Source: Dehalococcoidia bacterium | Lineage (GTDB): Bacteria > Chloroflexota > Dehalococcoidia > DSTF01 > JACRBR01 | NCBI GenBank assembly: GCA_035650575.1 | Contig: DASRHM010000123.1 | Coordinates: 1,234 to 65,233 of the forward strand | Direction: 5' to 3' | DNA length: 64,000 nucleotides | Part shown: in pieces, positions 2 to 10,112 of the stretch | Layout of the letters: every line of letters starts with the position of its first letter | How positions within the stretch are numbered: the first letter of the stretch is position 1 | The notes under the pieces: generated by a model | What the model was told of the DNA's origin: nothing | The model's database searches: none | The model's input: only the letters and a program-made list of their open reading frames with translations | Made by a program: the position numbers and the translations under genes

Positions 2-817
2 CTCGCGTCGTGGGTGCAAGCGAACCTGCTGCAGGAGGACGGCGACTTCGCCGGACCGCTTCGCACGAAACTGCACGACCGCGTCTACTCGTACCCGAAC
101 GCCTGGCTGATCGGCGGCGCGCAGAAGGCTGGGCGCTTCGACCTCGCGATGCGGGGCATGGACTTCCTGCTGCTGCTCCAGAACGGCGAGGACGGTGGCT
201 TCCGCACGCAACGCGACCGCGAGGATTCGGCGCAGGACCTGCTGTGCAGCGCGCAGTGCGGCAACGCCTGCCTGCTGACGGGGCACGTCAGCGAGGCGCG
301 CAACGTCGGACGCTTCCTGCGGACGGTCTGGCACGCGCAGCCCGACCCGGAGCGCGAGCTGTTCTTCGCGTACCGCCCCGGCGAAGGGCTGCGGACGGAC
401 TTCCCGGACGAACGGCAGCGCCTGTACTCGGTGCGCGCCGACCGGCCGCGGCAGATGTACTTCCAGCCGGGCATCGCCGCCGCGTTCCTGGCGCGGCTCG
501 CGATGGCGACCGGCGACCGCGAGTGGTCCGCGCTCGGGCGCCGGTACCTGGAGATCGCGTTCCACGTGCTCGACGAGATGTACGAGACGGCGCAGGTCGG
601 GAAGGTGGGCTGGGGCGCGGCGCTCCTGTATGCGGTGACGCGCGAGGAGGCGTGCCACGAACTGGCGGCGCGCGTCGGGCGAGCCATGCTGGACCAGCAG
701 ACGCCCGAGGGCGCGTGGGACAACACCGGCGGCTACGTCGACGACGTCGTGCGCGCCGAGTGCACGGCGGAGTTCGTCGTGCTGCTCGACGAGATGGCCG
801 GCGGGCTGGCCGCCTGA
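2..817 (+). CDS. Prenyltransferase / squalene-oxidase-repeat (alpha/alpha-toroid, terpene-cyclase-like) protein, 5' partial
   Basis: The frame of ORF 14..817 stays open to the window edge. Q-W type repeats (LQNGEDGGF, QQTPEGAWDNTGG) are typical of class II terpenoid cyclase / prenyltransferase alpha-toroid folds. Amino-acid composition is diverse and not low-complexity. Confidence 0.6.
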   Translation, partial: LASWVQANLLQEDGDFAGPLRTKLHDRVYSYPNAWLIGGAQKAGRFDLAMRGMDFLLLLQNGEDGGFRTQRDREDSAQDLLCSAQCGNACLLTGHVSEARNVGRFLRTVWHAQPDPERELFFAYRPGEGLRTDFPDERQRLYSVRADRPRQMYFQPGIAAAFLARLAMATGDREWSALGRRYLEIAFHVLDEMYETAQVGKVGWGAALLYAVTREEACHELAARVGRAMLDQQTPEGAWDNTGGYVDDVVRAECTAEFVVLLDEMAGGLAA

Positions 818-824
818 CGCCGTC

Positions 825-1412
825 CTGCTGATCGACCTCCACTGCCACACGCGCGTGCGTTCGGCGTGCAGCGCGCTGACGCCGGAAGCGCTCGTGCGCG
901 CGGCCCGGGCGCGCGGCCTCGACGGCGTCTGCATCACGGAGCACGACGCGCTCTGGGCGCGCGACGACGTCGAGGCGCTGGCGCGCGCGATGCGCTTCCT
1001 GGTGCTGCGAGGCATCGAGGTGACGACCGAGGTCGGGCACGTGCTCGTCTACGGCCTCGACGCGCACGACCCCGCGATGGCGACGCTCGCCGTGCTGCAC
1101 GAGGCGGTGCGGCGGGAGCACGCGCTGATGTACCTCGCGCACCCGTCTCGACGCTACGGCTCGCTGGCGCCGGAATCGCTCGCCGGGCTGTTCGACTCCG
1201 TCGAGGCGCAGAACGGCACCGAGGGGCTGCTGCAGAACGACAACGCGGCGGCGCTGGCGCGGGGCATGCGCCTTCCGGGCATCGGCGGCAGCGACGCGCA
1301 CTCGGCGCGCGAGGTGGGCGTCTGCGCCACGGAGTTCGGGGACGAGGTGACGGACGAGGACAGCTTCCTGGAGGCGCTGCGGGCCGGCCGCTACCGGGCG
1401 CGCCGCGTGTAG
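825..1412 (+). CDS. PHP-domain metal-dependent phosphoesterase (paralog 1); start codon non-canonical or uncertain
   Basis: ORF 855..1412 begins at a GTG. The conserved N-terminal PHP motif LIDLHCHT is encoded in-frame immediately upstream (about 828-851), with no ATG/GTG/TTG between the upstream stop and 855. The paralog at 28497..29177 begins TTG-CTG-ATC-GAC (MLIDLHTHT), and the equivalent codon here is CTG at about 825. Further matches to the paralog: EVTTEVGHVLVYGLD and SFLEALRAGRYRA. Confidence 0.7.
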   Translation: MLIDLHCHTRVRSACSALTPEALVRAARARGLDGVCITEHDALWARDDVEALARAMRFLVLRGIEVTTEVGHVLVYGLDAHDPAMATLAVLHEAVRREHALMYLAHPSRRYGSLAPESLAGLFDSVEAQNGTEGLLQNDNAAALARGMRLPGIGGSDAHSAREVGVCATEFGDEVTDEDSFLEALRAGRYRARRV

Positions 1413-2254
1413 GCGGTGGCCCTGCCGCCGGCGGGCGCGTCGGCCGGGCGCGGGGTGAGCGCCTCGCGCACCTCGGCCAGGGTCGGGACGCGGAGCGGCA
1501 ACGGCTCCGGCGAAAGCTCTTCGCCGCGCGCCATGGCCCAGACGCGCTCGACGAACAGCTGCGCGAAGCCTGCGAACAGCGCGGCGAAGCCCAGCAGTTG
1601 CACGGACTCCTCGAGGTTGGCCTCGATGCCGTACAGCGTGCCGGTCTCGGACGCGATGCCGAAGTGGATCATCGGGAAGGTGAGCGCTTCGAGCCCGAGC
1701 TTGCCGACGCCGCCGGCGACCGCGACGAGGAACCAGAGCTTCGTGCGCGCCGGCGCCTCCCAGATGCAGACGAGCAACGCGGCGGCGGTCGCGAGGATGA
1801 GTGGCGACCAGGCGACCTCCCAGGCGACGCGCTTCGACGAGTCGGGGAGGTTGAACCAGCCGACGAGATGCCGCCCCACCGTCTCGTGCAGGGAGATGTT
1901 CTTGTCGAGCGAGAAGAAGGCGATGCCGGCGGCGGCGACGAGCCAGAGCCAGCGCCTGCGCGGGTCGAAGAACGTCATCGCGACGCCGGCGGCGCAGATC
2001 GCCGCGCCGGCGAGCACGATGGTGTGGAACCAGGTCTCGGGGTTGTTGTGACCGTCGATGTCGAACATCGCGTGGCGGCGGGCGGCGATCCAGCGCTGCC
2101 AGACGTCCATGAGCACGAGCACGACGCCTGTGGCCGCGGCGATGAGCATGACCGCAAGGTCGGCGCGCGGCAGGCGTCCGGCGTCAGCCCTGGACGGGTT
2201 GAGGATCGATGCTGCCTGCTCGCGCGCGTGGCGCAGCGCATCGCGGGTCGTCAT
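1391..2254 (-). CDS. Polytopic integral membrane protein, unknown function
   Basis: 287-aa ORF with at least six hydrophobic helices (e.g. VMLIAAATGVVLVLMDV, WLWLVAAAGIAFFSL). Convergent with the PHP gene. Confidence 0.55.
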   Translation of the reverse strand: MTTRDALRHAREQAASILNPSRADAGRLPRADLAVMLIAAATGVVLVLMDVWQRWIAARRHAMFDIDGHNNPETWFHTIVLAGAAICAAGVAMTFFDPRRRWLWLVAAAGIAFFSLDKNISLHETVGRHLVGWFNLPDSSKRVAWEVAWSPLILATAAALLVCIWEAPARTKLWFLVAVAGGVGKLGLEALTFPMIHFGIASETGTLYGIEANLEESVQLLGFAALFAGFAQLFVERVWAMARGEELSPEPLPLRVPTLAEVREALTPRPADAPAGGRATAYTRRAR

Positions 2255-2564: not shown

Positions 2565-3674
2565 ATGGGGGCCGACGTCATCCTCAACCGCGCGCTCACC
2601 CGCAGGAAGTTTCTCGCCGCATCGGCGATAACGCTCGGCGGCGCCGCGCTGGCGACGATGGGCGCGCAGTGCGACCCGGCGCTGGTGCGCAGGCTCCAGC
2701 AGGCGAAGACGGCGTTGCCGCCGCAGCACGTCGCGTGGGTCTGGCAGTTCTCGTCGGACGGCGATCCGGCGCAGATCGTCTCGAACCTGCGGGCGAACAA
2801 GATGGCCGTGACAGTGAAGACGCACGACGGCACCGACTGGATGTCGCGCTACGACCGGCACGCGCAGGCGATCAGCGGGCCCGGCCAGGTCGCGGCGATG
2901 GCGAGCTACTTCGAGAGCCACGGCGTGCCGTTTCACGCCTGGTGCGTGGTCAAGGGCGACGACGTCGTGCGCGAAGCGCAGATGGCAGCGGACGTGCTGG
3001 CGGCGGGCGCGCGCTCGCTGATCCTCGACATCGAGGGGTCGGCGGGGTTCTGGCACGGCAGCGCGGCCGACGCCGCGCGCTATGGGGCCGAGCTGCGCGC
3101 TCGCAACGCCTTCGGGCGGGTGGACATCAGCATCGACCCGCGGCCGTGGCGGATGTACCTGGTGCCCATGCAGGAGTTCGTAGACTTCACCGACGGGATC
3201 TGGCCACAGCTCTACTGGGACACCTTCGACACGCCCGGCAACTTCGATGGCTACGTGAGCAGCGGCTTCCCGCCCGGCGGAAACGGCATCACCCCGGAGT
3301 TCCTGCTCGACACGACGTTCCATCTTCTCTCGCAATGGGACCGCTGGATCATCCCGGTGGGCCAGGGCGCGGCGAGCGACGCGGCGACCTGGCCGCGGTT
3401 CGTGCGACGGGCGTGGGAACTGGGGTGGGGCGCCGTCTCCGTCTGGCGGTACGGGGTGACGCGCTACGACACGCTCGTGTACCTGGGGCAGAACCCGGCG
3501 GGCGTGGCGCCGCAACCGCCGCGTCCGCCCACCGCCACGGCGACGCCGCGCACGCCGACGCGTACGCCGACGCGCACCCCCACCCGCACGCCGACACGGA
3601 CGCCAACGCTCACGCCGACGCCGACGCTGACGCCGGCGCCGTCGGCAACGGCCACCGCGACGCCCACGGCCTGA
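2565..3674 (+). CDS. Tat-secreted protein with C-terminal Pro/Thr-rich tandem repeat; possible TIM-barrel glycoside-hydrolase-like domain
   Basis: Twin-arginine signal (RRKFLAASAITLGGAALA). SD GGAGG about 6 nt upstream of ATG 2565. The catalytic-domain guess (GH25-like pattern) is weak. The C-terminus is a (TPTR)n linker. Confidence 0.7.
   Translation: MGADVILNRALTRRKFLAASAITLGGAALATMGAQCDPALVRRLQQAKTALPPQHVAWVWQFSSDGDPAQIVSNLRANKMAVTVKTHDGTDWMSRYDRHAQAISGPGQVAAMASYFESHGVPFHAWCVVKGDDVVREAQMAADVLAAGARSLILDIEGSAGFWHGSAADAARYGAELRARNAFGRVDISIDPRPWRMYLVPMQEFVDFTDGIWPQLYWDTFDTPGNFDGYVSSGFPPGGNGITPEFLLDTTFHLLSQWDRWIIPVGQGAASDAATWPRFVRRAWELGWGAVSVWRYGVTRYDTLVYLGQNPAGVAPQPPRPPTATATPRTPTRTPTRTPTRTPTRTPTLTPTPTLTPAPSATATATPTA
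3528..3671 (+). repeat. Tandem 12-nt ACGCCGACGCGY repeat encoding a Pro-Thr(-Arg) linker
   Basis: Seen directly: ...acgccgacgcgtacgccgacgcgcacccccacccgcacgccgacacggacgccaacgctcacgccgacgccgacg... translating to PRTPTRTPTRTPTRTPTRTPTLTPTPTLTP. Confidence 0.85.
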
Positions 3675-8674: not shown

Positions 8675-9664
8675 ATGCGTACGCTCGCCGTCGTCCTGGG
8701 CCTGGTCCTGCTCGCGCTGGCCGCCGGCGCGTCGTTCGTGATCCGCGCGGCCGGCGCGCCGGGTGCCTCGCTCGAGTATCGCTGTGACCCGGCGCGGTTG
8801 CCGCCGGGCGTGCCGACGCTCGTCACGTGCAGCTTCACCGCCCGCAACGACGGCGACGCGCCGATCGCAGGCGCCAGCCTCTTCTTCTCGGCGACGGCCG
8901 AGCGTCTGCCGGATCAGTACTACTTCTTCCGCGCCCGCCGGGATGGCGCGGATCTGCCGTTGACGTCCGGCCAGCTCGACTACCCCTATGGCGACCTCGC
9001 ACCGGGCGCACGGAGCACCATCGAGGTGCAAGTGATCATCCAGAGTGCCGAGCCCTACGGGGCGGCGGCGTCGCTGATGGCCAACGGCGTGGAACTCGCG
9101 CGCGCGCCGCTGCACGGCGACGTCACGACGGACGCGCCGGCGCCGGACGTGAAGCTGCGGCTGCTCCGCGACCCGGCGGACGCGCCGTTCGAGGCGCCCG
9201 GCGGCGTCGCGCGCTACGTCGTCGAGGTCGATGCGCCAGCGCCCATCGCTGACGGGCTCCTCGAGGTCGCGTACGGTCCCAGCGCCGTCGCGCAGGCGGA
9301 TGGTTGGACGCCGGCTCCACTGAGGGACGCGGCGGTCAGGCCGCTGGCCCCGGAAGGCTTGCACCAAGATGTGCCGCTCGTCCTCGCCTCGGACGGCGAC
9401 TACTGCCCGTCGACGTGGCCCGCCGCGGTGCTGCGCAGGCACGACACGGAGGGCGAGGTGCTGGCTGCGGCGCTCGGGCCGGGCGCGGCGCTCGGGCGGT
9501 GCTCCGGGCAGGGCGGAGGCGGTGACTTCGTTGCGCCGGAGGCGCTGCCGGCGGCCGGGACGGGCGGGCGCGCCGGCGGAGGGCACCGCGTGGACGTGCT
9601 ATGGGCCGCAGCCGTCGGCGCGCTGCTGGTCGCGGCCGGCGTCAGCGTACGGCGCGTACGATAG
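8675..9664 (+). CDS. Membrane-anchored cell-surface protein (DUF11/CARDB-like features) with C-terminal LPxAG-plus-TM sorting-signal-like tail
   Basis: SD GAGGAGG 7 nt upstream of ATG 8675. N-terminal TM (LAVVLGLVLLALAAGA). C-terminus reads EALPAAGTGG...VLWAAAVGALLVAAGVSVRRVR (motif, hydrophobic helix, basic tail). Confidence 0.6.
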   Translation: MRTLAVVLGLVLLALAAGASFVIRAAGAPGASLEYRCDPARLPPGVPTLVTCSFTARNDGDAPIAGASLFFSATAERLPDQYYFFRARRDGADLPLTSGQLDYPYGDLAPGARSTIEVQVIIQSAEPYGAAASLMANGVELARAPLHGDVTTDAPAPDVKLRLLRDPADAPFEAPGGVARYVVEVDAPAPIADGLLEVAYGPSAVAQADGWTPAPLRDAAVRPLAPEGLHQDVPLVLASDGDYCPSTWPAAVLRRHDTEGEVLAAALGPGAALGRCSGQGGGGDFVAPEALPAAGTGGRAGGGHRVDVLWAAAVGALLVAAGVSVRRVR

Positions 9665-9874
9665 GGTGCATCGAACGACGCGATCGGGCTCGGGCCGAAG
9701 CCGGATGGCGGACGCCGGGCGACGGCGTCGTCGAGCCGCGCCGCATCGCAGTTCGTGGGCTCGTCCGGTCCGCCCGATGCTGGTCGTCCGCCGGTCAGCG
9801 GGGCGCTCGCGGGGCGTGCCGGCGCTCGCTAGGCTGAGTAGTCGAGCGAGGGCGATTCGGCGGGAGCCGGGACC

Positions 9875-10112
9875 GATGCGGGCGAGCGAAGAGCGGCGCA
9901 ACGCGTACCTCCAGGCCTGGGTGGACTGGCAGAAGCAGCTCGCCGACCTCCACGCCGTGTTCATCGACGGCACGAAGACGCTCGAGGGCGACCGCATGAA
10001 GGGCCTGCTGAACCGCGAGGCGCGCGCGAAGGAGCGGTACGACCGCGCGCGCCTCGAGCTGCTCGGTGTGCCGGCGCCCGGCGATTCGCCGTTCGACCAG
10101 GATCCGCCGTGA
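9875..10112 (+). CDS. Small hypothetical protein, translationally coupled to ccdA
   Basis: 79-aa ORF (MRASEERRNAYLQAWVDWQKQL...). Its stop overlaps the GTG start of the downstream gene (GTGA). Confidence 0.4.

Follow-up and report, generated by a model that had tools for sequence, protein, structure and literature searches.

The DNA analysed here is a stretch of 64,000 nucleotides (nt), called the window below, taken from contig DASRHM010000123.1 (positions 1,234 to 65,233) of assembly GCA_035650575.1, a Dehalococcoidia bacterium of the phylum Chloroflexota. At its 5' end lie the 3' part of a gene for an AprG-like protein and, in the same direction, a gene for a predicted small metallohydrolase of the PHP superfamily, whose start region is the subject of this text. 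The coordinates of both genes, of the candidate start codons between them and of the other features mentioned are collected in Table 1. The PHP gene carries the codon CTG at the position where nearly all of its orthologues carry a canonical start codon, and in what follows we describe the locus, compare it with its relatives, and weigh how, and whether, such a gene may still be translated.

Table 1. Features at the start region of the PHP gene, elsewhere in the window, and at the corresponding junctions of a second lineage
Feature	Position	Strand	Basis or remark
3' part of the upstream (AprG-like) gene, 271 codons and stop	2..817	+	Open reading frame (ORF) in frame 2; stop TGA 815-817
Spacer cgccgtc, 7 nt, holding GTC 822-824	818..824	+	From the upstream stop to CTG 825; without Shine-Dalgarno sequence
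CTG aligned to the start codon of orthologues; likeliest candidate near-cognate start	825..827	+	Codons of orthologues; same in L001, L163 and L164
CTG 828 and ATC 831, alternative candidate near-cognate starts	828..833	+	ATC 831 is the start implied by HZP58606.1
CAC TGC CAC, HxH metal-binding motif (PHP motif I)	840..848	+	Aligns to DIHCHT of 3e0f and IDLHFHS of 2yb1
GTG, first canonical start in frame	855..857	+	IMG call, 185 amino acids (aa); 37 nt past the upstream stop; no Shine-Dalgarno sequence
Full homologous ORF of the predicted PHP / CehA-McbA family metallohydrolase, 195 codons and stop	825..1412	+	Domain matches, conserved columns
Convergent gene, 287 aa, apparently a membrane protein	1391..2254	-	No Pfam domain
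ORF with twin-arginine-like signal TRRKFLAASA and C-terminal Pro/Thr-rich repeat PTRTPTRTPTRTPTRTPTLTPTPTLTP	2565-3674	+	L001 counterpart: no Pfam domain recorded
Distant PHP paralogue, 38% identity	28497..29177	-	TTG start, AAGGA Shine-Dalgarno-like motif
Junctions of the second lineage	L070 2147-2160; L168 ~1432-1445; L169 ~853-866; L170 ~1432-1445		

Positions 811-860 of the window read c gcc TGA cgccgtc CTG CTG ATC GAC CTC CAC TGC CAC ACG CGC GTG CGT, and the upstream gene runs into this junction with ...GGC GGG CTG GCC GCC before its TGA. The PHP frame, which is +1 relative to that of the upstream gene, stays open across the junction (GTC-CTG(825)-CTG-ATC-GAC-CTC-CAC-TGC-CAC); its nearest preceding stop is at 636-638, and CTG 825 is the first NTG codon past the upstream stop. 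Translation of the whole interval between the stop at 636-638 and GTG 855 reveals no ATG, GTG or TTG in this frame, and the codons of the HxH motif (His 840-842, Cys 843-845, His 846-848) all lie 5' of that GTG. An earlier reading made from the letters of the window only, referred to below as the sequence-only reading, had stated as much: the peptide LIDLHCHT is coded in the +1 frame right after the upstream TGA, as can be read directly at 815-848, there is no canonical start in front of the HxH, and GTG 855, the first ATG, GTG or TTG in frame, comes 3' of the motif. The ORF listing of the window correspondingly begins the PHP ORF at GTG 855. Directly 5' of CTG 825 stands a GTC codon, which recalls the GTC start of Streptomyces sigR but may be coincidence. 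A spurious ORF of 273 aa also runs through the region in the third frame (10-831, plus strand) and ends at the TGA inside CTGATC (829-831); it illustrates how rarely any frame is interrupted in a genome so rich in GC.

The protein read from 825 was assigned to its family by three models, all of which score above their curated cut-offs: Pfam PHP PF02811 with 36.3 bits (cut-off 26.4; the match begins at Asp 834, which is profile position 1), PHP_C PF13263 with 68.5 bits (cut-off 21.3), and NCBIfam CehA/McbA NF038032 with 102.9 bits (cut-off 80; beginning at Ile 831, profile position 5). Every score against the equivalog models was far below cut-off. The conserved motifs LHCHT, TEHD, GH, AHP and GGSDAH are all present, and the HxH aligns to the N-terminal HxH of the solved PHP enzymes 3e0f and 2yb1. 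Among the 94 alignment columns that are at least 95% conserved in orthologues, 93 are kept, orthologues themselves deviating at a mean of 1.0 column. These matches indicate that the gene encodes a small PHP-type metallohydrolase of the CehA/McbA family. CehA/McbA proteins (NF038032), TrpH/YciV (RNase AM) and Cv1693 (the 3',5'-nucleoside bisphosphate phosphatase 2yb1) likewise have their N-terminal HxH a few residues from the start, but they are much longer, with 270-300 aa against 195 aa here. At its other end the PHP gene (stop 1410-1412) shares its last 22 nt (1391-1412) with the 3' end of the convergent gene.

The unusual codon is replicated. The window and three further assemblies, L001 (JGI 3300055099), L163 (ENA ERZ27279688) and L164 (Logan SRR5581483), all read gcctgacgccgtcCTGCTGATC and differ at other sites. 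The four come from different projects and samples, are 98.4-99.9% identical, and carry the same CTG-CTG-ATC; L001 and the window, for example, share 98.4% identity over 11.4 kb with 159 mismatches. L001 is the contig that encodes the closest database protein (P0001, 99% identity), and the 90% cluster of P0001 holds four more entries, two of which, L163 and L164, were read as DNA. The source of the window is a metagenome-assembled genome (MAG), and single-base errors do occur in such assemblies; a sequencing or assembly error at 825 would nevertheless have to recur in four assemblies that differ elsewhere, and we regard it as negligible. The same agreement disposes of the suggestion of the sequence-only reading that an assembly error or a 1-nt indel at the junction had created the anomaly. 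The comparison shows that the CTG is genuine and is fixed in this lineage.

Public annotation of the gene is inconsistent. It is recorded (P0001, P0121-P0124) as a protein of 185 aa from GTG 855, of 172 aa from GTG 894 and of 193 aa from ATC 831, the homologous length being 195 aa, and the two shorter calls cut off the catalytic HxH. The NCBI protein HZP58606.1 (193 aa, MDLHCHT...) is identical to the window translation from 834 onward; the NCBI pipeline therefore called ATC 831 as the start. A look-up of the exact 185-aa product of GTG 855 returned no match. At one orthologous locus (L002) the gene caller chose a downstream ATG despite the presence of a TTG start.

Where the orthologues start was determined from a homologue search with the protein read from 825, which gave 578 homologues, the best 120 of which were inspected. 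Loci were fetched from species-representative genomes (80) and from metagenomes (80), leaving 149 non-redundant loci, and the named source records are all Chloroflexota/Dehalococcoidia-type MAGs except one that is binned as Binataceae. The length is exactly 195 aa, that is, the length from 825, in 99 of the 120 best homologues, with an N-terminus of the form M/V/L-LIDLHCHT, and the longest of the 120 has 217 aa; P0002 and P0044 (79% identity) both begin V-T-L-L-D. The codon aligned to 825 is GTG in 91 loci, ATG in 37 and TTG in 17, which makes it canonical in 145 of the 149, and among the nearest syntenic relatives it is GTG (L100, L101) or ATG (L023, L165). The four exceptions are the window lineage with CTG, L019 with ATC, L047 with GTA and L070 with ACG. 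At L019 (3001-3003) an upstream GTG gives a 22-residue N-terminal extension. L047 (3001-3003) has no canonical start before the HxH; it is a single assembly, in which an error is possible.

The missing canonical start is a derived state because the orthologues carry GTG, ATG or TTG at this codon. Their alignment, which the sequence-only reading had proposed as a check, places the ancestral canonical start at position 825, reveals no fused ORF, and gives no sign that orthologues begin at the downstream GTG. CTG is derived and not a chance feature of a GC-rich frame. The ancestral codon would have been GTG, ATG or TTG. The sequence-only reading had compared the gene with the paralogue in the window instead. 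It read the start of the paralogue correctly as TTG CTG ATC GAC, giving MLIDLHTHT, but the single T-to-C difference that it drew from the comparison carries no meaning: the paralogue is a poor guide to the ancestral codon because it is only 38% identical, and the nearest syntenic orthologues have GTG or ATG. Codon 2 (CTG 828) does not stand out as a specially conserved back-up start, being CTG in 52% of the loci against a general usage of 44% of this codon for leucine.

A second and unrelated lineage also lacks a canonical start before the HxH. It is represented by four assemblies, L070 (a Tepidiformaceae MAG), L168, L169 and L170, and its upstream neighbour is a gene for a LysR-type regulator. 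In L070 the end of the LysR frame, ...AAA CTC CCA CGC TGA, is read in the PHP frame as CC ACG CTG ATA GAC, and the LysR stop TGA overlaps the CTG (CTGA). When the L070 protein was used as query, the search returned P0245, 99% identical and annotated with 170 aa; the three JGI contigs that encode it, L168-L170, have an identical junction and 6-16 differences elsewhere. P0285, 73% identical to the L070 protein, is also called at 170 aa and may represent a third, deeper lineage of this kind. In relatives of the L070 clade the distance from the LysR stop to the PHP start is typically -1 to +10 nt, as in TAGTG or TAG-ATG. Seen across the two groups of assemblies, loss of the start has occurred twice, independently.

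The substitutions within each lineage indicate that the reading frame has been maintained since. Among the four strains with CTG, 9 sites of the PHP ORF vary; 6 of the changes are synonymous and 3 non-synonymous, and the ratio of non-synonymous to synonymous rates (dN/dS) is ~0.19. Given that 73% of sites are non-synonymous, neutral evolution would yield at most 3 non-synonymous changes with a binomial probability of P=0.015. Two of the changes, at 848 (CAC to CAT) and 851 (ACG to ACA), lie 5' of GTG 855, and in the PHP frame each alters a third position and leaves the amino acid as it was. For the second lineage, the counts of synonymous to non-synonymous changes are 5:3 in the PHP gene and 8:0 in the LysR gene; pooling the PHP genes of the two lineages gives 11:6, which departs from neutrality (P=0.0013). 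Constraint is stronger on the flanking genes, at 14:1 and 8:1 in the window lineage, and over the combined lineages the PHP genes differ from them (11:6 versus 30:2, P=0.015). Canonical-start orthologues, compared in 17 independent close pairs, have 121:50, or 29% non-synonymous, and do not differ from the start-less lineages (Fisher P=0.59). Because the two ratios are equal, the excess of non-synonymous changes over the flanking genes is a property of the family and not a mark of decay. Frameshifts and stops are absent from the PHP ORF in all eight assemblies of the two lineages; neither the lesions nor the neutral pattern of a pseudogene is seen, in substitution counts that are small and of limited power. 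The pattern argues that the PHP ORF is under purifying selection after the loss of its start.

With regard to the signals for initiation, Shine-Dalgarno sequences of the GGAGG type are plainly recognisable in front of the neighbouring genes, most of which start with ATG; the median pairing energy of these genes with the anti-Shine-Dalgarno (anti-SD) sequence is -8.9 kcal/mol versus a background of -3.0. No Shine-Dalgarno sequence precedes the candidate starts of the PHP gene, for which the energies are -1.5 (825), -1.5 (828), +0.7 (831), +1.9 (855) and -3.5 kcal/mol (894). The family as a whole behaves in the same manner: over 142 loci (L002-L170; 20 nt 5' of the start) the median is -3.0 kcal/mol, equal to background, and values of -7.9 or lower occur in 3%. 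The family start codon is GTG in ~61% of loci, and a LysR-type gene often precedes it at a distance of -1 to +10 nt. Spacers were also measured automatically over all loci, a measurement used only qualitatively since the TGA inside CTGATC contaminated it with false values of -7 nt. Scans for Rfam families, tRNAs, promoters and terminators gave nothing relevant near the start site. The arrangement in the window, a co-directional pair with a stop-to-start distance of 7 nt and a downstream gene without a Shine-Dalgarno sequence, is the one expected of translational coupling. Termination-reinitiation is reported to be efficient at distances of about -8 to +10 nt and nearly abolished at about 20 nt (PMC10666635).

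The partner in such coupling would be the upstream gene, whose own start lies outside the window. In L001 it is complete (8965-9963, 332 aa) and begins with ATG behind a strong Shine-Dalgarno sequence, GGAGGG, with an anti-SD energy of -10.8 kcal/mol. No Pfam domain was found in the 332-aa protein, which belongs to a family without a Pfam model, but it is homologous to AprG, an (alpha/alpha)6 barrel (phmmer E=1.5e-35), and its AlphaFold2 model, with a predicted local distance difference test score (pLDDT) of 94, matches 9lfq/9c95 in Foldseek (TM 0.88, 30% identity); the label alpha-toroid given to the gene by the sequence-only reading was correct. AprG of Streptoalloteichus tenebrarius is termed a transaldolase in PDB entry titles, and we take it to be linked to apramycin octose formation. 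Homologues of the upstream protein number ~156, in Chloroflexota MAGs, and the 120 listed are 249-365 aa long, mostly 331-336 aa. The AprG-like gene and the PHP gene form a conserved pair in one sub-clade. In L100, L101, L023/L105 and L165 homologues of the upstream protein (~70% identity) lie directly 5' of the PHP gene and end at a homologous ...DEMIGGIASA* or ...GGIAGA*; spacers of 19, 19, 37 and 22 nt, respectively, follow before GTG or ATG, compared with 7 nt in the window. In these relatives the PHP frame contains stops 5' of the start, and each of the two proteins has a gene of its own.

That separation bears on one explanation offered by the sequence-only reading: the AprG-like protein and the PHP domain would form one polypeptide, joined at GCC-UGA-C either by programmed +1 frameshifting or through a 1-nt indel that had escaped detection. 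The fusion would be ~530 aa long and carry the junction peptide ...GGLAADAVLLIDLH. The PHP frame is indeed +1 to the upstream frame and open over the junction, and UGA-C is a weak termination context. In prfB, the gene for release factor 2 (RF2), the arrangement is similar: a UGA with a C behind it (CUU-UGA-C) stops the first frame, and the ORF beyond it lies in the +1 frame. The likeness ends there. In prfB the P site holds the slippery CUU, in place of which the window has GCC, and judging from the codons involved a tRNA-Ala on GCC would face CCU after a +1 slip, with a mismatch at the first position. The Shine-Dalgarno-like stimulator that lies 3 nt upstream in prfB is lacking at the window junction, where the only G-rich stretch, GGCGGG (800-805), is 6 nt upstream and a poor match to the anti-SD sequence, and the RNA at the junction folds no more stably than its shuffled counterparts (z=+0.68). 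All four assemblies share the same junction, which excludes an assembly indel; L100, L101, L023 and L165 carry two separate genes with spacers of 19-37 nt and stops in the PHP frame; and no fused homologue was found from either side, none of the 120 best PHP homologues exceeding 217 aa and none of the 120 listed of the 156 upstream-protein homologues exceeding 365 aa or containing a PHP domain. Fusion by a shift or an indel is rejected here as highly improbable.

What we consider the best explanation, with a probability of roughly 55%, is that the PHP gene is intact and still selected, that CTG has taken the place of its canonical start, and that it is translated by weak, coupled near-cognate initiation, for which CTG 825 would be the likeliest codon. 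In this scheme the ancestral GTG, ATG or TTG would have been replaced by CTG in this Dehalococcoidia lineage, leaving a gene with no Shine-Dalgarno sequence 7 nt past the stop of a presumably well-translated AprG-like gene. Ribosomes ending at UGA 815-817 would then reinitiate with initiator tRNA at the nearest near-cognate codon, CUG 825 or possibly CUG 828 or AUC 831, and the product would be the complete enzyme, HxH included, in amounts far below those of the upstream protein. The start loss, its fixation, the separateness of the genes and the selection described above are observed; initiation itself, the codon used and the dependence on coupling are what we infer. Purifying selection still acts normally on the gene, from which we conclude that weak translation most likely persists. 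Among the three explanations of the sequence-only reading, CUG initiation is the one best supported, if indirectly, by CTG in four assemblies, 93 of 94 residues kept, the 6:3 ratio (P=0.015) and the second lineage.

A crippling start mutation was another of the three, and part of it holds, as CTG should cut expression by ~50-100-fold or more according to data from Escherichia coli; the other part, that the gene is dead, misfits the selection signal. A null allele, in which CTG has silenced the gene and left a young pseudogene that has not yet decayed while other PHP paralogues cover its function, is in our view unlikely, although it deserves to be taken seriously. Neither a canonical start nor a Shine-Dalgarno sequence is present, CUG is a very poor start in E. 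coli (PMC11497404; bioRxiv 10.1101/063800), and the same window holds a PHP paralogue that starts with TTG behind a Shine-Dalgarno-like motif. Long frames moreover stay open by chance at such a GC content, which makes an intact ORF weak evidence of function, and non-synonymous changes make up a larger share in this gene than in its flanking genes (P=0.015). Yet that proportion equals that of orthologues with normal starts, the loss predates the split of the four strains with later changes still favouring synonymous sites (P=0.015 in this lineage and P=0.0013 over both), the conserved residues are kept, and eight assemblies from two lineages are free of frameshifts and stops. A true start at GTG 855 (the IMG call), with an N-terminus of the type (M)RSACSALTPEALVR, or at GTG 894 (Prodigal-type calls) would instead give a truncated protein without HxH. 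GTG 855 is the first canonical codon in frame, and three annotation pipelines picked 855 or 894. Such a product would lose the first strand and the two metal-binding histidines, which do not vary within the family; both GTG codons are without a Shine-Dalgarno sequence (+1.9 and -3.5 kcal/mol); 855 is 37 nt past the upstream stop, beyond the reported range of coupling (PMC10666635); and the two strain differences 5' of 855 leave the amino acids of the PHP frame unchanged. The caller truncated L002 likewise despite its TTG start, which points to a gene-caller artefact, and we hold a start at either GTG to be improbable.

Several points weigh against weak coupled initiation at or near CTG 825. 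In E. coli CUG is strongly discriminated against, and its complexes are less stable than those on AUG, GUG and UUG (PMC11497404). The efficiency of reinitiation at such distances differs between gene pairs, even though 7 nt is within range (PMC10666635). The sequence would be compatible with GTC 822, CTG 825, CTG 828 or ATC 831 as the start. Finally, the test for selection draws on 9 substitutions (17 when the second lineage is added) and assumes equal mutability across codon positions.

Genes with near-cognate starts have been described before. The infC and pcnB genes of E. coli start with AUU. In Streptomyces the GTC start of sigR is used and regulated (PMC5472188), and initiation in E. coli at CUG, AUC, AUA or AUU reaches ~1-2% of the level of AUG, with a range of 0.02-3% depending on the construct (bioRxiv 10.1101/063800). 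The PHP gene resembles infC, pcnB and sigR in being a conserved gene with a near-cognate codon at the homologous start position, and the expected outcome, strongly reduced initiation, is the same; here NCBI annotates ATC 831. In infC and sigR, however, the unusual codon is shared by the whole genus and has been demonstrated to serve regulation via initiation factor 3 (IF3), whereas the codon here is derived and is confined to one shallow lineage and one independent other. The locus likewise shares with described cases of termination-reinitiation coupling (PMC6728339; PMC10666635) the co-directional genes, at a distance of 7 nt here and with a CTGA overlap in the second lineage; its downstream gene is without a Shine-Dalgarno sequence, and many orthologues lie -1 to +10 nt after a LysR gene. 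The described cases use ATG, GTG or TTG (ATGA, TGATG), and in this the CTG of the PHP gene differs from them; no case of reinitiation on CUG turned up in the literature retrieved.

Non-canonical bacterial starts and termination-reinitiation coupling are both already known, and NCBI already annotates the protein from ATC. What appears to be new is modest, namely two independent, replicated and still-selected start losses in one family without Shine-Dalgarno sequences, with CTG at or next to the upstream stop. The finding opens no new mechanism and bears on no long-standing question; it is a real but modest curiosity. It also illustrates a failure of annotation, in which one gene has three recorded lengths and two of them remove the HxH. 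A wider proposal, which we put forward tentatively and at somewhat less than even odds, is that termination-reinitiation is the main route of translation in this Chloroflexota PHP family, that a canonical start is thereby less strictly needed, and that two lineages lost their NTG start independently, one with a 7-nt spacer and CUG and the other with a CUGA overlap, while the gene remained functional. If that is true, CUG would count among the codons at which ribosomes genuinely reinitiate in nature, and truncated calls for such genes would be a systematic error of gene callers. If the protein is translated from CUG (or AUC) by coupling, the locus would be a natural example outside the model organisms, in which termination-reinitiation tolerates the loss of a canonical start, and the biological effect would probably be a strong down-tuning of the small phosphoesterase relative to its AprG-like partner.

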